The notes under the pieces were generated by a model, which was given only the letters and a program-made list of their open reading frames with translations, had not been told where the DNA came from and searched no databases. Position numbers and translations under genes: made by a program. A DNA stretch of 63,895 bases, counting the filler, from Stramenopiles sp. TOSAG23-2 (Eukaryota): assembly GCA_900128395.1 (NCBI GenBank). It is 23 parts of 23 records of this genome, joined end to end, with 100 filler letters (N's around TTAATTAATTAA, not from the genome) between each part and the next. Parts side by side here need not be neighbours in the genome. Positions count along the whole stretch, not along the records: positions 39,066 to 41,745 come from LT651589.1; 22 more parts are not named here. The stretch is one strand, 5' to 3'. Of this stretch, positions 16,531 through 42,194 are shown in pieces (the stretch's first letter is position 1; each line of letters opens with the position of its first letter).

Positions 16531-17513
16531 AGCATTCCAGCATTCTGTATATTCCTGGCCTTAAAGGTGTGGCAGATGGAGCTATTGCCTGTATTGGCTG
16601 CAAAACCTATTTCTTTTGTAGTCTAAGCATCGAAGAAACTTTGAAAAATATATAAATATTTTCCTAATATCTNNNNNNNNNNNNNNNNNNNNNNNNNNNN
16701 NNNNNNNNNNNNNNNNTTAATTAATTAANNNNNNNNNNNNNNNNNNNNNNNNNNNNNNNNNNNNNNNNNNNNTCATATCATCTCAGCAGATGTTCCTTTA
16801 GGAATAATTCCATTTTTATCTTCATGGTCAATATGCAATATATATATATATATATAAAAGATATGGCATATATTTACCACCAAATGCGAAAATATTTTTA
16901 TGAAAAATGTGTGAACATGTTAATGTGTGTGAAGAGAGTAACAGTAATGGATCATTTTTATATTTTTGAAAAATGTATAAAAGCCTATCTTTTATGATTG
17001 CATTAATGTTCATAAATAATTTATGCGTGGAAGTTGAATTTGAGACACAAATAGGAGTTTTTGTGTGTACTTGCACTGGAAAGTTTTTGTGTGTACTTGC
17101 CAGCTTGCCCGGATTGCACTGGAAAAAGTAGTAGTCTTGTATGGTTGTTCCTTTATTTTCAATGCTATACCATGCTAATTTCATATCAATATTTTTGTTT
17201 ATTCCTATTCAAGTATAAATTATGTGTCATTTGTGATAGGAATACATCAAATATTAGACTACATATTTTTTAACAACTTATACGTTTTCAGACATTTTTG
17301 TGTAAGAATGTATATATATATATCATATCGGATATAAACTGAGTAGAATAGAGATCTGGGAGATCGAAATATAGATAGAAAAGTGAAAATTGATACATAG
17401 AGAGAGATAGAAGCTATATACAATATACACAACGATTAATATATACGTGAAGGAAAATAATATATATATATATATGATGAATTTATCACCAGCCTCCATC
17501 ACCAAAGGGTCGA

Positions 17514-19427
17514 ATGTTAGAAGAGCGGAAAACACAACAATCATCCCCGTCGACGGAGTTAATGAGTCAGCAGTATCAAGCTTTTTATGGGAGTAAGAAC
17601 AGCAATAAAAATAGCAACTTGTCCCCGCGTACAAGCCCCAGTGGTGTAACAACTTCTACTGCCATTGTATCACAACAATATAATAATAATAATAATAATA
17701 TTGCTTCACCAACGTCTTCGTCAGCAACACTTGCTACAAAAGCTTTACAAAAAGCAAATATGTTGTCACGTGATGAAATAGAAAAGGCGCTGGAGGAGAT
17801 TGAAGAGGAACGAAATTCAACTCAAAACCAATTAGGACAAGTACGCTTAAGTCTGCAAGATAGAAATGATGCTGCGCAACAACTATTACAAGATACATAT
17901 GCAATGGATACTGCATCCAAGTTAAAAACACTGCCTCCACAGTTACAAAATATTGCAAAATCAGCTTTAGAGGAAGCAAAAGCAGAGGTTCAAAGTGAAT
18001 GGTCTGAAGAGGAGCTTCGGCTATTGGATTGGTTGGAAGAATTAGTCAATGAACGTAGTCAACTTAAGCAGGAAAGCCTGCAAAAAAAAGTGCAACATGC
18101 GAAAGATATACGCGATGCGTTGAAAATACCGAGCCAAGGCCAAACTGATAAGTTTAGACAGTTAACTGATAAATTATTAGAAAGTGAATCTCAGCGTGCT
18201 GATATTGTGATTGAACTTGGACAAGCACAGCGTACTGCGCAAGATTTGAGACGATTGTTATCCAGCAAAGGGGCGGATGAGGTGCGTCATGCGAGAGAAG
18301 TCGTTGCTAGAATGGAACGTGATTTAGAAGCATCGCAAGGGGAGAGAAAAACCCAAGCTAATAAAATTGTTGAACTCCAAAGTCGCAATGCAGTCTTGAT
18401 GGCTGAAAAATCTCGTTGGTTAGAACAAGTTCAAGAGGAAAATGGGCAATTACAAACGTTGTTTAAAGAAGCTAGAAGTGCAAAGGAAATGATGGTACGT
18501 GAATTAAACTTAATTGATCGTGAGCGAAGAGAATTGGAAGAAGAACGACATCAGTTACGGAGCAAATTACAGCAACATAATCAAAACTTACGCAGTGGTT
18601 TAGGTGGTTCGCAACGTGGAGGTGGTGGAAATTATAGAGGTGGTGCCGTGGATGTTCGAACGTTGAGATCAGCAGGACGCTTAAACGAGACTACGAAGAA
18701 ACTTCGTGATGAATTATTATTGCGTCAAGGGGCCATGCGCAACGTATTTGAAGCAGGGAAAGGTATTTTAGAAAGTGTATTTAGACGAAACATGCAATTA
18801 GATCCGAATAATCGTAATGCAATAGTGACTACTACTTACATTCCATCACAAAACTTTGAAAATTTTGATAAATTATATACGCAACTCGTATCGTTTTCAT
18901 TAGATGCTGATAATTCATTAATTTTAGAAGCTTCCAAAAACAATATTGAATTTAAAGGTGAATTTGCAGCTGTGAATACGAAAATAGAGAGCATTACAAT
19001 TGCATTTGAAGATCGTTTAAAAGCACAAAGGTCCTATTTGGCTGATAACGAATCCCGTATGGAAAAAAAATGGGCCGACATGTGGTCTAATGTATCGTTT
19101 ATAAATGATAATGACATTGATATAGAGATGAAAAAAATATTAGGAGATTTGAACAAAATTGTTCCTCGAGCTCTTGCTGCTGGTGGTAGTGCACAAACAG
19201 CTGGTGACGAAGCTGTTCGATTAAATTTAGACAAGATGAATAATAATAATAATAATAATGGCGGCATTAGTAATCGTGGTAATTCTCGTACTAATATGAG
19301 TGAAAACATTATGTTAAAAAAACAAGTAGAGAAATTAACTGGGGAATTAGATCGATTGCAAAGTTTACATCGTGCATTGCATAGTAACCATAATAAGTTG
19401 AAAGCTAAAGCGAGGCAACAAAAGTGA
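17514..19427 (+). CDS. Long coiled-coil hypothetical protein
   Basis: 637-codon ORF rich in E/Q/L/R heptads. Confidence 0.8.
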   Translation: MLEERKTQQSSPSTELMSQQYQAFYGSKNSNKNSNLSPRTSPSGVTTSTAIVSQQYNNNNNNIASPTSSSATLATKALQKANMLSRDEIEKALEEIEEERNSTQNQLGQVRLSLQDRNDAAQQLLQDTYAMDTASKLKTLPPQLQNIAKSALEEAKAEVQSEWSEEELRLLDWLEELVNERSQLKQESLQKKVQHAKDIRDALKIPSQGQTDKFRQLTDKLLESESQRADIVIELGQAQRTAQDLRRLLSSKGADEVRHAREVVARMERDLEASQGERKTQANKIVELQSRNAVLMAEKSRWLEQVQEENGQLQTLFKEARSAKEMMVRELNLIDRERRELEEERHQLRSKLQQHNQNLRSGLGGSQRGGGGNYRGGAVDVRTLRSAGRLNETTKKLRDELLLRQGAMRNVFEAGKGILESVFRRNMQLDPNNRNAIVTTTYIPSQNFENFDKLYTQLVSFSLDADNSLILEASKNNIEFKGEFAAVNTKIESITIAFEDRLKAQRSYLADNESRMEKKWADMWSNVSFINDNDIDIEMKKILGDLNKIVPRALAAGGSAQTAGDEAVRLNLDKMNNNNNNNGGISNRGNSRTNMSENIMLKKQVEKLTGELDRLQSLHRALHSNHNKLKAKARQQK

Positions 19428-19429
19428 TT

Positions 19430-19462
19430 TACTCTCCAGAAAGAATACAATAACTGAGACAA
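19430..19462 (+). repeat. Dispersed repeat family B; 33-bp exact match to 38921-38953
   Basis: TACTCTCCAGAAAGAATACAATAACTGAGACAA occurs at the 3' ends of two different contigs. Confidence 0.85.
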
Positions 19463-19565
19463 TGTNNNNNNNNNNNNNNNNNNNNNNNNNNNNNNNNNNN
19501 NNNNNNNNNTTAATTAATTAANNNNNNNNNNNNNNNNNNNNNNNNNNNNNNNNNNNNNNNNNNNN

Positions 19566-27932: not shown

Positions 27933-30616
27933 TAAATTGGTCCAATATTTATAATATTTTCTTCTTAATTTATCCATTGTCGTTTGACATTTACTTTCCA
28001 TACCTAATCTTGCATCATTTGCAACGGTGACCGATTTGTCGCGATTTTTAGTTAATACGTCAATTTTCAACATATGATCATTTTCCAGATTTGCAAATGC
28101 CAAATTATGTTCCGTTTTTAATGATTCTAATAATATTAAATGATCCTTTTCGATTTGTTCACTTTTATTTACATGATCATTTTTGAAGTTACTTAACGCC
28201 AACTTGTGTTTTTCATTTAACCTTGCAATTTCATCTATATGATAAGCTTTTATCCGAGACTCTTTTTCTATCGATTCATTCCGAATATCGTCAACAACAG
28301 ATTGATTTGAAAAATATTTCCAAGTTTGAAATCCTTTTAGCAATTGAACTTTCCGCAAGCGCAAAGTAATGCTTTTAACACGCGTTGTTTGGATATTTTC
28401 CGATGATATTCTAGACACTTCGCGTAAAATCATTCCATGTGTATATTGTTTCCATGATTGGAAGCCCTTCATTAGGCTACATTTTACAATACGCAAAATT
28501 ATATTTCGAAGCGATGTTGATTTATTTTTATGCAAAATATTGTCAATTTTCTTCATATAATTTCGTTCTCTTTCTATTCGTTGACTGTTTAATTTCCGGT
28601 GTGTCTCATTAATTTTTATTCTGTTACTAAAGCTTTTCCATCTATTGAATCCCAAAAATCTAGTCAATTTAGAAAATCGCATAGCTATTCTCATTATTGA
28701 AGTTGATTTTGACTCAAGCAAGAAATTTTTCAATTTCAGTGAATGTGCCTTTTGTAGTTCTGCATATTTGACCACAGACTTCTTATGACTTTCCACCATC
28801 TTTAAAAGAGTTAAAGCATTCTTCCACGTTCTAAAACCTATGAAAACTTTAGATTTCGCAAACCGCATTAAAAGATTCTTAAGAGCTGCTCGTCTTGCAC
28901 TTTTATGCCATAAAGTTTTGTAAGTGCATGCTAACCATTGTTGAAATCTCTCTTTTAATATACGTCCACCTGCAATCCTTGCAGCCCAATTTGACATTGC
29001 TGCGACAGCGTTTGTGTGTTCCTCCATGTTTCGATCTTTATCAGTTTCCGTTTTCCACTTCAAAATGGCACCACTCAATCGTGCTCGTCGGGCTCGAGAG
29101 TATAATCTTCTTGCCATATCTACTTTTGTCTTCCTCATTGCAGCGTGTCCAAGGCATAAAGCGTCTTCTATATTGTATCTGTGAACTACTGATTTCCAGT
29201 GACTTAATGCTAGTGAAAAAAACTGCTTTGAAATGATCCGACTCATTCTTTGACATGATTTTTTTACGTACTTTTTACGCCTTATATTTATATTCCACAT
29301 CATAAAATGGTGCTTTAGTAATCGTATGGATTTACGAGATAGCATATTTTGAAATACAATTTTGTATCTCAACGACAATCTTGTATATAAGATCCACTTA
29401 CACAGCATCTGCTTTAAAAGGTGGTATTTTTTACTAATAAGAAGATTTTTCATATGTCTTAATTTTCGTAATCTGGTAATTTTCTCTTTTTGTATCTGTG
29501 TTGAAAAACTTTTCCATGAGAAAAACGCAAGTCTGCGGGAAGATTTTCTTACAGCTGCTATCATCCTTGATATTATGGCAGAATCTGATTTATTATCTTC
29601 ACTATATTTACGCCAATTCCGGAATACCATCAAAACCAAAGACCTTCTAGCAATTTTTAAATGTTGTTTTAGTAGTGTGTACATGTGATCTTTACGTACT
29701 TCAGCCTCGGCCATAAGTTGAGAATTAGCCTTTAATTTCTTTAAACCATAGGTTAGCAAACGGTATCGTTTCCACTTTAGACGCTGCAATATAATGTGTC
29801 GCTTTTCAATCTTGTCAAGTACGTGCTGTCTCCATGCATACAACATAACCCTACATTTTTTTTTTCTAAATTGCCTCCAAAGAGATAACGCAAAGTTGAA
29901 CTTTCTGTGGTCCAATACATTTTCAAACTCGAGAGTTGAGACGCTAGTTTTAATCCTAGACCATGCTCGCATTAAAAGATCACGGCGTTTCCATTTAAAT
30001 AGTTCTAAAATCGTACGGCGTTTTCGCATGTCATTGGAAACAAAATCTTTCCAAGCTCGAATCAGCTTTCGCAGTTTTTTCTTCTTTAACTGACGCCAAG
30101 TAGAAATGGCAATCATTAATTGCTGGAGTTAAAAGATCACGGCGTTTCCATTTAAATAGTTCTAAAATCGTACGGCGTTTTCGCATGTCATTGGAAACAA
30201 AATCTTTCCAAGCTCGAATCAGCTTTCGCAGTTTTTTCTTCTTTAACTGACGCCAAGTAGAAATGGCAATCATTAATTGCTTCTTATTGTGTATTGCCTG
30301 GTGCTGATCACGAACACTTTGGCGATGCCAAAAATGAAACGACAAAAACAGCTGGCGACGAAAGTGATTACCAAATATATGACTACACAATACCCGCTTA
30401 TATTTCCGTTTCTGGCTATATTTATACCATCTAGAAAAACTATATTTTCGACGTATGTGATTGTAATTAGTAAAGATACGAGACACAGATTTATCACGAT
30501 TTCGTTGTAGACGCAACGATAGCACGTTTTCACGCCATATGCGAAGAATACGAGATTTATTTAAATTGGTCCAATATTTATAATATTTTCTTCTTAATTT
30601 ATCCATTGTCGTTTGA
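27933..30616 (-). CDS. Sfi1-like (centrin-binding-type) Trp-repeat helical protein, internal segment with no evident start or stop
   Basis: Periodic (F/L)xxW(K/R) motifs in basic helical sequence (AFFSWKSF, GFRTWKN, GFNRWKSF, GFQSWKQY, GFQTWKYF). The frame break is explained by a 157-bp duplication. Confidence 0.7.
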
Positions 30617-36088: not shown

Positions 36089-36599
36089 GTTTATATATAT
36101 ACTTTTCCAATTGAAACTAAGCCACAGTTTGATATTTCTTATTTCCCGATTGGTTGTTGGCAATTACAATAATATATATATANNNNNNNNNNNNNNNNNN
36201 NNNNNNNNNNNNNNNNNNNNNNNNNNTTAATTAATTAANNNNNNNNNNNNNNNNNNNNNNNNNNNNNNNNNNNNNNNNNNNNTTATACTACAATATTACA
36301 CATAAATAGATCCTTATAATATTAAAAACAACATATACCAACACAAGATACATTATTGACACCCACACACTTCAGGGCAGGGAATTATTAATAATATGTG
36401 AGTCTAACGACGATTAGCACAAACATATAATTTAGCACATGTCCTTGCATTTTTCTGTTTATTTTACATATTCCAGGAGGAATATTCAATTAGGAGGAAC
36501 GAATATTCCTCATTCCTTGAACTTGTAGAAGAAAAACAAAGAGGAGATTGAATTGAACACTGTCTCATTCTTGAAACATTTATTTGCTACATATTTAAC

Positions 36600-37825
36600 A
36601 TGTCGAGGGTTATATATAAACATTTCACTGCATCATCTTCATCAACGTCAAAGGATAAATTCCAACTACCAAAAGAAGATTTATTAGGTGGTGCAGGATG
36701 TAAGTAAAATATACATATATATATATAGTGTGTAGCTTGCTCCAGTATCATTGCATAATTCCTTTCTATTCGTTTATTGCCTAATATAACTGACATAAAA
36801 CATATTTTCGATTCCTTTCTATTCGTTTATTGCCTAATATAACATCAGTCTTGGATCGACTAGGTATGAAACAAGAAGCAACTCCAGCAAAGCCAATTAA
36901 GAAGACTCGAAGAGATGAGCTATATATAACTTTAAAAAAATTAAATTTATTGAAACATGTTCAACAACTGAGTGAGGAAGGCTATTGTATAGTGGAAGAT
37001 GCAATCCCACCAGAAATGGTAAAGCGTCTGCGTGATCGTGTCATTGAAGTTGGCAAAGACCAACTAAATAAGAAAAGAAGAAGTGGGCAAAAATTTGCGC
37101 AAGTAGGTGCACTCTTTTACAAGGGGCGTGTTTTTGAAGAAGCAGTGCAATTACCAAAACAAGTTGCATTAGCAGAATACATGTTGGGCGCAAATTATAG
37201 TGCCTGGCAATTCCTTGCTAGCGTAAGAGGCGAAGGTACGAAAGGATTGCCGGTGCACAATGATTTGGGCCCAGGCTGGCGTGTGCCTTTTCAAAGTTTC
37301 CCTGAAATGTGTACGTCGCTATATATTTTGGATGAGTTTAATCAAGACGCAGGAAGTACATTTGTAGTTCCTCGCACACATCATTTAAGAAGACGTCCCG
37401 ATATCCGTAATCGAAAAGATAGGGCGTACATTGAAAAGCATGCAATACCAATTGTTGCAAAACCAGGATCAATTGCTATTTGGGATGCTCGGATGTGGCA
37501 TGGCAGTCTTCCACGAAAATTAAAAGGTGAACGGGTTGTTCTCTCGTATGCTGCCACAAGGGTATATTTCCGACCAAGCGATGATTATACAGAATTGCCT
37601 GAGGAAGTATTTGAAAGAAACGATGATTTCTTTGCCAGGTTAGTTGGAAGAGGCATTGGTTATGGTGAACTTGGCATTGAAGCAGGTGTTTTATTTGGTG
37701 GGGCGCGGGATGCAAATAAAACTGGTGCATGGATAAATGAAGAGGAAAATTTAAGCTTACTAGATACGGATAAACGATTAAAGACTGCATCAGTAAAATT
37801 TAAACCAGAAGGGATGGATCCATAA
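36600..37825 (+). CDS. Phytanoyl-CoA dioxygenase (PhyH)-family 2OG-Fe(II) oxygenase, two exons (intron 36700-36848)
   Basis: EGYCIVEDAI, HND (HxD), GSTFVVPRTH and WDARMWHGS motifs. The GTAAGT...CAG intron joins the exons in frame. Confidence 0.9.
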
Positions 37826-39065
37826 AAGAAAATATTATATGTATTTATAAATATGGTATCACAGAGGTAATTCATATATATTATGTGCCAATATATAATA
37901 TTTTAATAAATATTAATGTGATGAATATTATAATGATTGTAATTTTAGAGTGAGATGCTAATATTATTATCTCCTCAAATATTGGTTGAAATCTAGGTCT
38001 AAGTACGGAGTAGTTGTATTACTGTGGAAATATTTAAACCTATGACGTACTCAGAGTATATATTAAAATATGATATGTGTTATGTATGTGTTACACTCGG
38101 ATTATCTTACGAAGTATATTTTATTTTTACGTACACTATTTTTTATTAGAATTACAGGGTTCGGTGTCTCGATCCTCCTTCACAGTTTACACAAAGTTCC
38201 TCTATTGTTAATATTTATAACAGGTGCTATGTAATGCTATTTTATATACACATTCGCATATATATCTATGCACATAATTTCAATTCAATATGGATAAATG
38301 TATCGGGAATATCGGAAGCCACAGTAACAAAATTTATCATCAGGGACACTACGGGACATAAATTCACTGTTAGGGTATTCAAGTTACATCATAAGATAAC
38401 TGTTTTTACATATATCTAAGAAACTACCAAAAACTCTGCCAAACTACACGTCTGTAAAATAATAATTGCTAATTTTCATTATTTTTTTCAACATAGTAAT
38501 ACCTTTTGCTTATTATAGATCAAATGATTTAACTAATATGTTAACCGATATTACCAAGAAGGTAACTTGTACATCATAAAAATGTATTGTAGATAGTATA
38601 TCGTAAATTATATATAATCTAGATGATTATCCAGTGAAAGATTTGGAGTAGTTCATGAAGAAATCTTTGTTTACGACAAGAAATTGAAAATAATATTTCC
38701 AAAAGTAAAACTTGAAGAACAAATGTTGCAAATGTATGATGTATATATTTGATGAATGTAGAAAGATAGATAGAGATCATTAGCACTAATTAGTATACTC
38801 TTTTATATATAGGAGCGTTCTGTTCTTTCGTAAGCCTGTGTACGGCCTAATTAATGCTATTTACCTGGACCTGAGTATCGCCATCTCACTCTATTTTTTA
38901 ATTTACTCATTGATAATTCCTACTCTCCAGAAAGAATACAATAACTGAGACAAATCTATCTCACTNNNNNNNNNNNNNNNNNNNNNNNNNNNNNNNNNNN
39001 NNNNNNNNNTTAATTAATTAANNNNNNNNNNNNNNNNNNNNNNNNNNNNNNNNNNNNNNNNNNNN

Positions 39066-39278
39066 GTTGTGGATAATGAGAGAATGTCTAAAAAAGCAGA
39101 ATAGCTTTTAAAAAAAATGACCAAAAGTGTAAAAAAAAAAGTAAAAAAAGCCATTAAGAAAAAAGAATTACCAAAATCAATCACCAGTAAATTAAGTGCA
39201 AGACAAAAAAAACTGTTATCAAAAGGTAGTGATGTGTTGTTATCAAATTTATTAGGAAGTGGTTTAAAATTAATGTGA
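39066..39278 (+). CDS. Lys-rich viral core-like protein, 5'-partial, with an in-frame TAG at 39102-39104
   Basis: Reads VVDNERMSKKAE*LLKKMTKSVKKKVKKAIKKKELPK...LLSNLLGSGLKLM*. Not in the ORF track. Confidence 0.6.
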
Positions 39279-39323
39279 TTATTTAGAAAAATATTTAAAA
39301 TTTTGTATTTAAAAATATTTTTT

Positions 39324-39347
39324 AATCTTTTACCATATTATAACATG
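39324..39347 (+). promoter_or_regulatory. Shared upstream/initiation motif of viral genes, AATMTTTTAYCATATTATAA(C)ATG
   Basis: Near-identical copy at 40687-40708 and a shorter GATATATAATG at 40969-40979, each ending at a start codon. Confidence 0.55.
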
Positions 39348-40676
39348 AATATAGTGCATCCAAGCCTACAATTCTTCCAAGAACCACTTGAAGACAAAAG
39401 TATTGAATCAAAACACATGCAAGTGTACAACCCCAATGATATTGCTCCTGGATTGACCACAAAAACCAGATATGAAGTCCAGGTCGCTGGACAATCTGCG
39501 TTTATTAATTTTGGAGAAGCAGTGTTAGAGTGCTCCGTTAAAGTTGTATCCAACGCTAATGGAGCAGGTCTGGCTAATGGTCAACATACTGCACTCCAAA
39601 ATGGTTTCTGGTCGTTGTTTGAACGTGCTCAGCTACAAGTTGGATCAGGCAGTAGTATAATTGAAGAAGTAAATTTTTGCAATATAGCCAACCAAATGAA
39701 ATATTTAATTTCCAGCACTGACGATAAATTAAGAACTGAAGGTGGAAATTTAGGAGTTTATTTAGATGAAGGACTGACTGGAGGAGCTGAAGATGACGTT
39801 GCTGATAATGCATATAATAGAGGTTTTGCAACACGCATGTCCCAAGCCTCTGCTGATGCTGGTGGTAATGCAAAATTAATTACTTTTTATGCCCCACTAA
39901 AATATTTATTTGGTTATTGTGCCGAATCACGTGTAACAAGAAATCTAAAACACACAATTATTTTAAATCGTGCTTCACATAATAATATGATTCATCGCAG
40001 TGCAGGGGCAGACCCTGCTTTAGTAAGTTTTCAACGCCTACGGGTATGGTGTCCCACCGTAGTACCCAGCCTGGAGATAATTCAACGCTATGAGAATTCA
40101 ATGCTTCAAGGGTATAGTCAGAAGATAAATTTTGAAAGTATGAACTGCTACAGGTCTGGTGTATTTCCAGCCACCGATTTAACTCCAGTATTTAAAGTGA
40201 CCACTTCTATACAAAACCCAACACATATTTTAGTGGCCATACAAAATTCAGCAACAGATAACAACCAAGAGGCAAATAATCAGGTATTTTTAACATCTGG
40301 CGTCACTGAGATGGAGGTTAGATTAAACCAAACTCAACTACCAAGAGAGCGTTTAAACACAGATTACTCAGACTCTAATGAGAATTATGGACGTGCTTAT
40401 CAGATGTTTTTAGATTATCAAAAGGATTTTGGTGCAAATTCCTTAGTTAGTAAAACAGATTTTAAGAATTTATACAACATATATCACATCGATACTACTA
40501 CTGCTGAGCCTATGGTTTTTAATAATGATGGTGGTGGAAATTCCAGTTGTGATATAGAAGTAAGATTGCGTAGGACCGCCAATCAAACTGCAATTCATAT
40601 TTACACATTAATATTCTCAGATACGGAATGTGTTGTTACTGGAACGTCTGGAGAAGTTAGAATTGAGAAGTTGTAA
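39345..40676 (+). CDS. Polinton/Maverick-type double jelly-roll major capsid protein (443 aa)
   Basis: Motif order as I recall it for Maverick capsids: FQEPLEDKSIES...NP, LQNGFWSLFE, IEEVN, FYAPLKYLFGYC, LKHTIILNR, RLRVWCPTVVPS, NPTHILVAIQ, VRLNQTQLP, RAYQMF, DFKNLYNIYHID, LIFSD. Recognised by eye, not by database search. Confidence 0.88.
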   Translation: MNIVHPSLQFFQEPLEDKSIESKHMQVYNPNDIAPGLTTKTRYEVQVAGQSAFINFGEAVLECSVKVVSNANGAGLANGQHTALQNGFWSLFERAQLQVGSGSSIIEEVNFCNIANQMKYLISSTDDKLRTEGGNLGVYLDEGLTGGAEDDVADNAYNRGFATRMSQASADAGGNAKLITFYAPLKYLFGYCAESRVTRNLKHTIILNRASHNNMIHRSAGADPALVSFQRLRVWCPTVVPSLEIIQRYENSMLQGYSQKINFESMNCYRSGVFPATDLTPVFKVTTSIQNPTHILVAIQNSATDNNQEANNQVFLTSGVTEMEVRLNQTQLPRERLNTDYSDSNENYGRAYQMFLDYQKDFGANSLVSKTDFKNLYNIYHIDTTTAEPMVFNNDGGGNSSCDIEVRLRRTANQTAIHIYTLIFSDTECVVTGTSGEVRIEKL

Positions 40677-40705
40677 AAAAAATAATAATATTTTATCATA
40701 TTATA

Positions 40706-40921
40706 ATGCCTTATAGACCACCACCACCCAGAGGTTATAAATATGATCCAGTGACTTACAAATTGGTAAAACATGTAAAACCAGTAAAAACTTTAGGAAG
40801 ACGAAGAAAAAGAAAAACTGGAGGTAGATTAAATGTTAAACAAATTAAAAGTTTAATTAGCAAAGTGAAAAAATTAACCACTAAAAAAAATGTTGCAAAA
40901 TTAAAACAGTTTTTAAGATAA
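40706..40921 (+). CDS. Small basic viral core-like protein (71 aa)
   Basis: RRRKRKTGG followed by a Lys-rich amphipathic helix. Its ATG is preceded by the same motif as the capsid gene. Confidence 0.75.
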   Translation: MPYRPPPPRGYKYDPVTYKLVKHVKPVKTLGRRRKRKTGGRLNVKQIKSLISKVKKLTTKKNVAKLKQFLR

Positions 40922-40976
40922 CAGGGAAAAAAACTAATACAAAATGATATTAATTTTTTTCTAATACAGATATATA

Positions 40977-41189
40977 ATGGTGAAGAGGAAAAAATGTGCA
41001 AGACATTGCAAAAAGAGGCGTGTGGGCAGACCTTTAGGTAGTAAAAATAAAAAACGTAAAAAAAAGACAGGTGGAGCACTACCAGCATTGGCGGTGACTG
41101 GAGCAAAAATTCTTGCTCCAATTTTAATTAGAGAGACAATGAAAAGATTGCGGAAAAAAAAGAGAGGTGGAGGTATGAGGCTCATGTGA
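40977..41189 (+). CDS. Small basic core protein, adenovirus pX/mu-like (70 aa)
   Basis: Basic tract, then TGG, then hydrophobic ALPALAVTGAKILAPILI. This matches the layout of adenovirus pX (RRMRGG-ILPLLIPLIAAAIGA). Confidence 0.72.
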   Translation: MVKRKKCARHCKKRRVGRPLGSKNKKRKKKTGGALPALAVTGAKILAPILIRETMKRLRKKKRGGGMRLM

Positions 41190-41645
41190 AAATTAGAGAA
41201 TGATGAGCCCCTGAGTAATTTTGACCTGGATAAGATGTTAAAAAGGAGTAAATCCTACATTGGTACATGGTCACATGATGCAATACCAAAATTACCAAAT
41301 AAAACATTTAGCGGAATTATAAATTTAGATAAATCAACAGGGGCAGGAACACATTGGGTATGTGTTTACCACGATAACAATAAACCCTTTACAGAATATA
41401 TTGATTCTTTTGGATTGCCTTTTAGCGACATAATAGAGAAAAAATTAAAACAGGTAAAACCCAAAATATTAATGAATTCTTCCAGGATTCAGAATATTAA
41501 AAGTAGTTTGTGCGGATTTTTCTGTTATTATTACATCACAGAGAGAGATAAGGGCAAAACACCTTACGATATTCTTTATAAATTTAGACCTGAGGGAGAA
41601 AAAAATGAAAATATTTTAAGAAAAGCCATAAAAAATCTGGAATAA
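41190..41645 (+). CDS. Adenain/Ulp1-like (clan CE) cysteine maturation protease; frame open from 41190, first ATG at 41235
   Basis: IINLD...GTHWV (His), YIDSFG (Asp) and RIQ...SSLCGFFC (Gln, Cys). PLSNFDL lies upstream of the first ATG. Confidence 0.92.
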   Translation, partial: KLENDEPLSNFDLDKMLKRSKSYIGTWSHDAIPKLPNKTFSGIINLDKSTGAGTHWVCVYHDNNKPFTEYIDSFGLPFSDIIEKKLKQVKPKILMNSSRIQNIKSSLCGFFCYYYITERDKGKTPYDILYKFRPEGEKNENILRKAIKNLE

Positions 41646-41726
41646 TCGTAATTTTTTGTAATTTTAAGACAAAAAATTAGGAAAAATCCGTAAAAAATTA
41701 GTATAAAAATCTGGAATAATCGTAAT
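41631..41726 (+). repeat. 22-bp direct repeat AAAAATCTGGAATAATCGTAAT
   Basis: Copies at 41631-41652 (overlapping the protease stop) and 41705-41726. Confidence 0.85.
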
Positions 41727-42194
41727 GTTTTTAAAAAATATGAAANNNNNNNNNNNNNNNNNNNNNNNNNNNNNNNNNNNNNNNNNNNNTTAATTAATTA
41801 ANNNNNNNNNNNNNNNNNNNNNNNNNNNNNNNNNNNNNNNNNNNNGAATAGGAGATATTGTGTTGATGGTGGTATACATGTGTTTGGTTTGTTATATTTC
41901 GTTTATGTTCATTCTCTTTTTCTGCGATTCATTTTGTTTCTTGCACTTTTCACGTATTACAGTAGCTATATTAATAACTTTAAGTTTTTTATATACTTCT
42001 TGGACTTCAATCAACACTCAACACCGAGCTATATACTTTTCATATTTCATATCACACCTTTCCCTATCAAAACCTATTTTTTATATAAAAATCAAACTGT
42101 ATTATATAATTCTAATAATAACAAGGAAAAACTAGTTTTATAAAAAATATTATAGCACTATACGTATAAAATTTTTTAGAGTATTAAAACCTAG

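Follow-up and report, generated by a model that had tools for sequence, protein, structure and literature searches.

A protease gene behind a single in-frame UGA in a marine polinton-like virus: a candidate readthrough fusion with a small basic protein

Retroviruses express their protease as part of Gag-Pro(-Pol), by UAG readthrough in gammaretroviruses and by -1 frameshifting in lentiviruses and betaretroviruses. Adenain, the adenovirus protease, is made from its own ATG and is packaged by DNA binding. How the maturation protease is dosed and packaged in polinton-like viruses and virophages is, to our knowledge, not known. Here we describe a protease gene of a marine polinton-like virus that follows a small basic gene (the pX-like gene) in the same reading frame, with a single TGA at 41187-41189 between the two and no start codon ahead of its conserved N-terminus. 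It lies on scaffold LT651589.1, which occupies positions 39066-41745 of the 63,895-nucleotide stretch of DNA from Stramenopiles sp. TOSAG23-2 (assembly GCA_900128395.1) analysed here and called the window throughout. The protease is probably produced as a rare fusion with the small basic protein, and from the comparisons below we see about an even chance that it is made by readthrough of the UGA at 41187, as an extension of the pX-like protein.

As in retroviral Gag-Pro, a maturation protease with no start of its own would be added, in rare molecules, to the C-terminus of an abundant structural protein that binds nucleic acid, and the choice between a leaky in-frame stop and a -1 slip on a heptamer would vary among related lineages. 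Unlike the retroviral system, this one belongs to a DNA virus with a double-jelly-roll capsid, its protease is an adenain-fold cysteine rather than an aspartic enzyme, the stop codon is UGA with no stimulator found downstream, and the arrangement is known from sequence alone. It shares with adenovirus adenain (MEROPS C5) the fold, the His-Asp/Glu-Gln-Cys set and neighbouring small basic proteins with Gly-Gly sites; it differs in that the protease falls below the cut-off of the Pfam family PF00770 and the basic neighbour has no Adeno_PX match. In animal adintoviruses, putative -1 frameshift 'Hexon-Adenain (Hexain)' fusions have been put forward, in a single sentence, from KnotInFrame predictions (PMC11071296). 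That proposal likewise appends an adenain homologue to a virion protein by -1 frameshifting in a polinton-related virus; there the hexon takes the place of the small basic protein, the viruses are those of animals, and the portions of that paper cited here describe no readthrough variant. A full-text literature search returned no paper on readthrough expression of a polinton cysteine protease, and none of the papers listed on virophage frameshifting or readthrough concerned protease recoding, by title or abstract. Protease recoding in this virus group is essentially undescribed.

The features of the junction and of the protease are the following.

40977-41189, + strand: pX-like small basic gene, 70 codons and a TGA
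41156-41162, + strand: A_AAA_AAG heptamer in the pX-like frame, within an A8 run (41154-41161)
41179-41209, + strand: hairpin GGCUCAU/AUGAGCC (7 bp, predicted) whose loop contains the UGA, of uncertain significance
41187-41189, + strand: lone in-frame TGA between the pX-like and protease frames, candidate readthrough site
41190-41234, + strand: 15 sense codons KLENDEPLSNFDLDK, free of ATG, within which the LSNxD(I/L) motif lies (41211-41228) and helix 1 begins
41190-41645, + strand: adenain-fold (clan CE) cysteine protease, 151 codons past the TGA, with its TAA at 41643-41645
41200-41214, + strand: mini-ORF (open reading frame) ATG ATG AGC CCC TGA in the +1 frame, at the homologues' usual start-codon place
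41352-41354 (His), 41403-41405 (Asp), 41490-41492 (Gln), 41511-41513 (Cys): catalytic codons of the protease
39335-39344 (atattataac, capsid gene), 40698-40705 (atattata, ORF71), 40970-40976 (atatata, pX-like gene): promoter-like AT-rich motif, each copy abutting an ATG

Read from 40977, the frame runs MVKRKK...KKKRGGGMRLM, then the TGA, then KLENDEPLSNFDLDKMLKRSKSY... to the TAA. The pX-like protein consists of a basic N-terminus with Cys-x3-Cys, GG, a hydrophobic helix AKILAPILI, KKK, GGG and MRLM. As the initial annotation of this stretch had stated, the frame passes through the TGA, and no ATG occurs before 41235, which lies 45 nt past the stop and beyond the LSNxD(I/L) motif. The annotation's further claim that this N-terminal motif is conserved also held. 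The motif is covered by 81 of the 93 aligned rows (the window's own included), where we counted L in 55, S in 53, N in 64, D or E in 67, and I or L in 75. Most homologues (78 of 92) have residues N-terminal to the motif Leu, three being the modal class (17/92); the remaining 14 have none ahead of the motif column (alignment A4). In the structural model of the protease, residues 1-10 have a mean predicted local distance difference test score (pLDDT) of 91 and a helix spans residues 10-16. The AT-rich motif that precedes the capsid gene, ORF71 and the pX-like gene is absent before the protease, again as first noted, and in the related locus L018 it likewise abuts most other genes and is missing ahead of the protease. 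An open, conserved and selected frame directly follows a conserved stop and has no start of its own.

The protease itself is a clan CE adenain-fold cysteine protease. At E<=1e-3, 5256 relatives came from an exhaustive library search (the same query drew no match in a word-indexed protein search), and the best solved relative by sequence was pS273R of African swine fever virus (ASFV; E 7.2e-5). The AlphaFold2 model (pLDDT 96.4, predicted template modelling score 0.91) matched adenovirus proteases at ranks 1-6 of a Foldseek search of the PDB (E 1.5e-8 to 1e-6, query template modelling score 0.69-0.75), with those of adenoviruses 8 and 2 at the top (E 1.5e-8 to 7e-8) and ASFV pS273R and poxvirus I7L ranked below. 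H55, Q101 and C108 are invariant and D72 nearly so across the 93 aligned sequences, and all catalytic residues are intact in the window protease. Against PF00770 (Peptidase_C5) it scored 16.3 bits where the cut-off is 21.3 (E 0.0078); one relative, L028, clears that cut-off at 26.2 bits.

An independent check on the TGA comes from other strains. The Logan contig of the probable source run is identical and is not independent. A 706-nt marine metatranscriptome contig from another study (X2), about 98% identical, aligns without a gap to the 686 bases of 41038-41723 and differs there by 12 substitutions; none is listed at 41187-41189, and both the TGA and the frame are kept. Ten of its differences were listed, nine of them in the reading frame: seven are synonymous and two non-synonymous (K>R and N>K, both conservative). 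Three fall in the 15-codon linker, where those at 41226 and 41231 are synonymous and 41201 T>A is the N>K change, which also removes the first ATG of the +1 mini-ORF. A virome contig (X3) begins at 41185, which leaves the TGA at its very edge and weakly covered, and again shows a 7:2 ratio of synonymous to non-synonymous changes. Judged from these contigs, the TGA is no assembly slip, and the sequencing error that had been named as a possible refutation is answered by X2, in which the stop recurs without a gap. The 7:2 ratio in both X2 and X3 points to purifying selection on the frame among strains with the same arrangement, which speaks against a dead copy. In runs X5-X20, only 5-8% of the sampled scaffold words were present.

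We compared the junction with those of relatives, 100 distinct loci from scans of IMG/VR and JGI metagenomes, 59 of which have an aligned protease N-terminus. Virophage and other polinton-like proteases belong to the same protein family as that of the window and carry the same N-terminal motif; in 49 of the 59 loci an ATG precedes the motif by at most 25 codons, unlike in the window and in nine or ten loci that lack one. Specifically, nine loci have none and L018 has only a far one. Each of the nine loci without an ATG, like L018, has its protease frame shifted by -1 relative to an upstream ORF, which terminates within the overlap (judged by eye for L023). Near-identical virophage contigs make up most of the loci that start at an ATG and so dominate their frame statistics, and the -1 bias is therefore stated without a P value. 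The homologue comparison suggested by the initial annotation therefore gave a divided answer: the relatives without an ATG, including the six closest, have neither a sense codon at the stop nor their own ATG before the motif (the far ATG of L018 excepted), whereas 49 of 59 loci do have one.

The six closest loci with a readable junction are L017, L018, L020, L021, L022 and L023 (41-54% protease identity). In every one of them the upstream gene is a homologue of the window's pX-like gene (alignment A3), with 32-52% identity for those of L017, L018, L020, L021 and L022 and with G64 and G66 invariant; their products end in GGGM(R/K)LLG(T)RR-stop or GKGLRM-stop. No in-frame ATG occurs near the protease N-terminus in L021, L022 and L023, the first ATG of L020 falls inside the motif, and the sole ATG of L018 is 84 codons upstream, inside the overlap. 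The proposed joining of a basic protein to the protease thus has its counterpart in relatives, as a -1 overlap of the same gene pair. The name 'pX-like', however, turned out to be an analogy only: none of the six family members matched Adeno_PX (Pfam PF05829) at E<=5. A profile of the family had no match in the PDB, and a scan of IMG/VR with alignment A6 found no relative of the pX-like protein.

Heptamers of the form X_XXY_YYZ occur within the overlap, in the upstream frame, in L001, L003, L004, L005, L017, L018, L020, L022 and L040. They read A_AAA_AAA in L003, L004, L018 and L040, U_UUU_UUA in L005, A_AAA_AAG and A_AAG_GGA in L022, and A_AAG_GGA and G_GGA_AAA in L020; L021 has no heptamer in phase, and those of L017 lie only far upstream. 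A heptamer with an open -1 frame is thus present in nine relative loci, and a downstream structure is clear in L001 only. There (L001:3938-4010), A_AAA_AAC, a 5-nt spacer and a 13-bp stem-loop (dG -28.2, z -4.45, 0/200 shuffles) lead from the end of a 346-amino-acid Gly-motif ORF into the protease frame, and the protease has its own ATG as well. After the other slip sites z ranged from -1.80 (L022) to +1.76, with L018, L003, L004, L005 and L020 not significant; G-quadruplexes and pseudoknots were not tested. The distant loci L003, L004, L005, L040 and L001 follow the same pattern with long Gly-motif proteins or another small basic ORF as partners. No homology was found between the pX-like family and the long ORFs that precede the protease in L004 and L005 (hhalign probability <1%), so the fusion partner differs between clades. 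The upstream ORF of L005, unrelated to the pX-like gene, has a sub-threshold Adeno_PX match (E 0.0042). Pairwise identity among the proteases without an ATG or in a -1 overlap is 26-57%, the L022/L023 pair excepted, so several lineages are involved.

In the window, the A_AAA_AAG at 41156-41162 corresponds by homology to the candidate slip site of the relatives, but a shift into the -1 frame would run into TGATGA (41201-41206), so that the heptamer is present without an open frame to slip into; the +1 frame offers only ATGATGAGCCCCTGA. Polymerase slippage on the A8 run was considered and rejected, the frames being closed in either direction. The residues right after the TGA, K-L-E-N, resemble the protease-frame linkers K-I-I-E-N of L021 and K-I-E-H-N of the database protein P0004, a likeness that fits translation through the codons after the stop. 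From the MRL codons to the motif there are 30 nt in the window versus 26 in L022 and 32 in L021. One database protein, P0002 (228 amino acids), was rejected as a natural fusion of the pX-like protein and the protease: it is the -1 frame of the L018 pX-like gene, open by chance for 85 codons. The upstream extension of P0004 may be a chance-open frame of the same kind.

These observations suggest the following route. The protease would be translated from the mRNA of the preceding pX-like gene, having no promoter-like motif or start of its own. Most ribosomes would terminate at UGA 41187 and release the 70-amino-acid basic protein; in a small fraction a near-cognate tRNA would decode the UGA and translation would continue in the same frame, to give a fusion of about 222 residues with the junction MRLM-X-KLENDEPLSNFD. 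Such a fusion would hold the complete protease, its conserved N-terminal helix included, and it is because decoding of UGA 41187 yields a protease with the conserved N-terminus that we regard it as the simplest route. Relatives would make the equivalent fusion by -1 frameshifting in the same gene pair, and in the window lineage the -1 overlap would have turned into an in-frame arrangement with a leaky stop. The fusion would be packaged with the genome, and the protease would then free itself at the Gly-Gly-Gly site five residues ahead of the stop. The adenain cleavage-site rule is the basis for this proposed cut, and Gly-Gly or Gly-x-Gly followed by (L/M)(K/R)L(L/M)-stop recurs at the ends of ORF53 (a small ORF ahead of the capsid gene) and of the pX-like protein, in the window and in relatives.

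Comparative support for the fusion idea is strong, and readthrough is a well-motivated proposal for how it is made. Expression of the protease by recoding looks like a trait of the clade, and in the window lineage UGA readthrough seems to have replaced frameshifting. More tentatively, and with a probability that we would put a little short of even, a whole clade of marine polinton-like viruses may make its protease solely by recoding, joined to the C-terminus of a virion protein such as a small basic core protein, in what would be a Gag-Pro-like strategy of DNA viruses, with lineages switching between -1 frameshifting (or polymerase slippage on runs of A8-A11), in-frame fusion, and UGA readthrough with no known stimulator.

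Several results weigh against readthrough. The window arrangement is unique: an in-frame stop occurs in 0 of the 59 related loci, and it is backed only by strains at least about 96% identical in the pieces compared, with only three substitutions in the 15-codon linker. X2 comes from an RNA library, which is no proof of transcription and still less of translation. An in-frame TAG at 39102-39104 aligns to a Lys mid-way in the continuous 158-amino-acid ORF of L018, a sign that the scaffold may have defective spots. The stop also has no known readthrough signal. The type I readthrough consensus is CARYYA, as in the tobamovirus UAG CAA UUA, and the C at +4 is its most important base. The window has AAATTA after the TGA, with A and not C at +4 and U and G as the preceding bases. 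Like the tobamovirus leaky stop it has xAA UUA, five of six positions, and unlike it the stop is UGA and the C at +4 is missing; the argument from a tobacco mosaic virus-like context is therefore weak, the one mismatch being that C. Neither UGA-CGG nor UGA-CUA is present, the next codon being AAA. No structure was found after the stop (124 nt, 41187-41310; z -0.61, 57/200 shuffles; pseudoknots were not searched for), Rfam gave no match on the scaffold at E<=1, the selenocysteine insertion sequence (SECIS) included, and no tRNA or tmRNA gene was found in the window. The hairpin at 41179-41209 gave z -2.13 in a 100-nt fold, with 6/200 shuffles as good. Of the initial annotation, the observation stands and the interpretation holds in part, with the fusion idea strengthened and the tobacco mosaic virus context as its weak point.

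Among the alternatives, the one that fares best is a separate protease of 136 amino acids begun at ATG 41235, by reinitiation after UGA 41187 (and the mini-ORF) or by leaky scanning, with the first 15 residues lost; we consider it unlikely. This is the first in-frame ATG, the gap between stop and ATG is short (45 nt), the 14 homologues with no residue before the motif column would fit such a start, and gene callers begin P0001 and P0151 (90% identical by protein) at an internal Met matching it. Starting there would remove the conserved motif and the high-confidence helix at 10-16, and the substitutions in codons 13 and 14, upstream of the ATG, are synonymous in frame 0. The equivalent ATG is missing in L021, L022 and L023, so it is not something on which the clade depends; for many 'short' proteases in databases the same missing start is probably the cause, and leaky scanning is unlikely with four in-frame AUGs in the pX-like gene. 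Nor is Met-16 conserved as a start, its column being mixed (I 14, M 12, L 11, Y 11).

The out-of-frame ATGs of the mini-ORF could serve instead, with a start at AUG 41203 (or 41200), translation of M(M)SP and a one-base back-slip at CCC-UGA on the C4 run, to give a free M(M)SPLSNFD protease. These ATGs stand at the homologues' start place, three residues before the motif Leu (17/92); with CCC in the P site, the stop in the A site and a fourth C ahead, perfect re-pairing is possible; X2 has lost only the first of the two ATGs, and the 3' arm of the hairpin at 41179-41209 starts at AUG 41203. We judge this distinctly improbable, because it requires two rare events, reinitiation after a 70-codon ORF and a frameshift. 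An out-of-frame ATG of this kind is found in no relative, there is no stimulatory structure downstream, and the conservation of K-L-E-N after the TGA would be left unexplained.

Improbable too is a defect: the scaffold would be a degenerating or already dead copy, or a short-read chimera, whose ancestral -1 overlap was broken by an indel and which yields no functional protease. None of the 59 loci shares the arrangement, the TAG at 39102 stands where L018 has Lys, a source-run contig of lower depth (5.1 against about 15) supplied the scaffold's initial 297 bases, and false stops in short-read assemblies of such elements are warned of in PMC10120064. Against this, X2, from another study, has the same TGA and is gap-free over 686 bases, the 7:2 ratios in X2 and X3 indicate that the protease frame is under selection in this very arrangement, and the catalytic residues are all intact. 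A nonsense mutation in a natural fusion gene, which had been named at the outset as the alternative to readthrough, is unlikely, since the closest relatives are not in-frame fusions and the strains with the TGA show the same 7:2.

That the true host reads TGA as an amino acid, with the pX-like gene and the protease forming one plain fusion gene, is very improbable: both TGAs on the scaffold do lead by an open frame into the next gene, and the run of the ORF53 TGA, 22 sense codons and the capsid ATG has a chance of about 0.04 by rough estimate, but both TGAs sit where the relatives' homologous proteins end in TAA or TAG, the matching intergenic frame of L018 between ORF53 and capsid holds three stops, conserved Trp is TGG, no TGA occurs within the 443-codon capsid or 151-codon protease frames, in 20 of the 23 other scaffolds the long ORFs gain just 0-22 codons when TGA is read as sense, and the clade otherwise relies on -1 overlaps and not on fusions. 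Because homologous proteins end there and the long ORFs of other scaffolds hardly lengthen, we take TGA on this scaffold to be a true stop, and readthrough of UGA 41187 remains our preferred reading.

The rest of the scaffold comprises the following features.

39066-41745: scaffold of 2680 bases, polinton-like virus late-module fragment, with a spacer at either end and no host flank
39117-39278, + strand: ORF53, small basic ORF of 53 amino acids, C-terminus GSGLKLM-TGA
39345-40676, + strand: double-jelly-roll major capsid protein, 443 amino acids, TAA stop, Pfam PF21738
40706-40921, + strand: ORF71, basic 71-amino-acid ORF with KRKTGG, no family match

The scaffold represents a fragment of a marine polinton-like virus, with every gene on the + strand. 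A double-jelly-roll capsid gene (PF21738, E 3.9e-14, 53 bits with a cut-off of 27) stands beside a clan CE protease, as expected of a polinton-like late module, and L017 and L018 have a like neighbourhood with a capsid of the same family. ORF53 is homologous to the C-terminal part of the 158-amino-acid ORF of L018, which ends in GSGLKLL-TAA. Its TGA (39276) opens 22 stop-free codons in the frame of the capsid ATG (39276-39344); a conserved readthrough from ORF53 to the capsid was dropped as a candidate, with three stops in the matching L018 stretch. Pfam gave no family match for ORF71, a capsid-based scan of IMG/VR found no relative, and a PHROGs search gave nothing useful. A source-run contig of 6198 nt with a depth of 243.5 (about 16-fold higher) matches the patches 39087-39119 and 41028-41072 with their spacing kept (1908 bases), suggesting that the sample also contains another element, related but divergent.

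The window as a whole was strung together artificially from about 24 scaffolds (2663-2697 bases), placed from longest to shortest with N44-TTAATTAATTAA-N44 spacers between them; genes on either side of a spacer are unlinked, and the window does not represent one locus. The GC content of its individual scaffolds is 0.26-0.41, and they carry mostly ordinary eukaryotic genes (myotubularin phosphatase, ankyrin repeats, OTU, ThiF-rhodanese, aspartyl protease, an FG-GAP protein). Scaffold 27933-30616 has an identical string of about 25 bases, TTTATAATATTTTCTTCTTAATTTA, at its start and end, suggesting a circular molecule or a tandem repeat. A terminal string of about 28 bases, TCCAGAAAGAATACAATAACTGAGACAA, is common to scaffolds 16773-19465 and 36283-38965 and is probably a dispersed repeat where the assembly broke.

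In the wider protease family, in-frame fusions to larger virion proteins occur in P0044, P0056, P0109 and P0115. We also observed 333-amino-acid frames that join a phospholipase-A2-like domain (PF08398, parvovirus-type, E 1.4e-6) to the protease (PF00770, E 7.6e-6) in L028:940-1941, and likewise in L029, L030, P0077 and P0098; in L028-L030 the upstream ORF overlaps in the -1 frame and has A-run heptamers. L002:2740-4251 is a single 503-amino-acid frame of protease, rve integrase (PF00665, E 1.7e-14) and chromodomain (PF00385, E 2.5e-9), and 523-amino-acid frames in L038 and L098 start with the protease.

Gene callers truncate or mis-fuse these proteases, P0002 being a false fusion and P0001 and P0151 starting at an internal Met, so annotation of the family needs recoding-aware models. 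The window UGA and the -1 overlap of relatives at 41-61% identity form a natural pair for studying the swap of one recoding mechanism for another. If the proposal is true, recoding would tether the protease to a DNA-binding core protein, which would account for its stoichiometry as well as its incorporation, and a strategy thought typical of retroviruses and RNA viruses would extend to double-jelly-roll DNA viruses.

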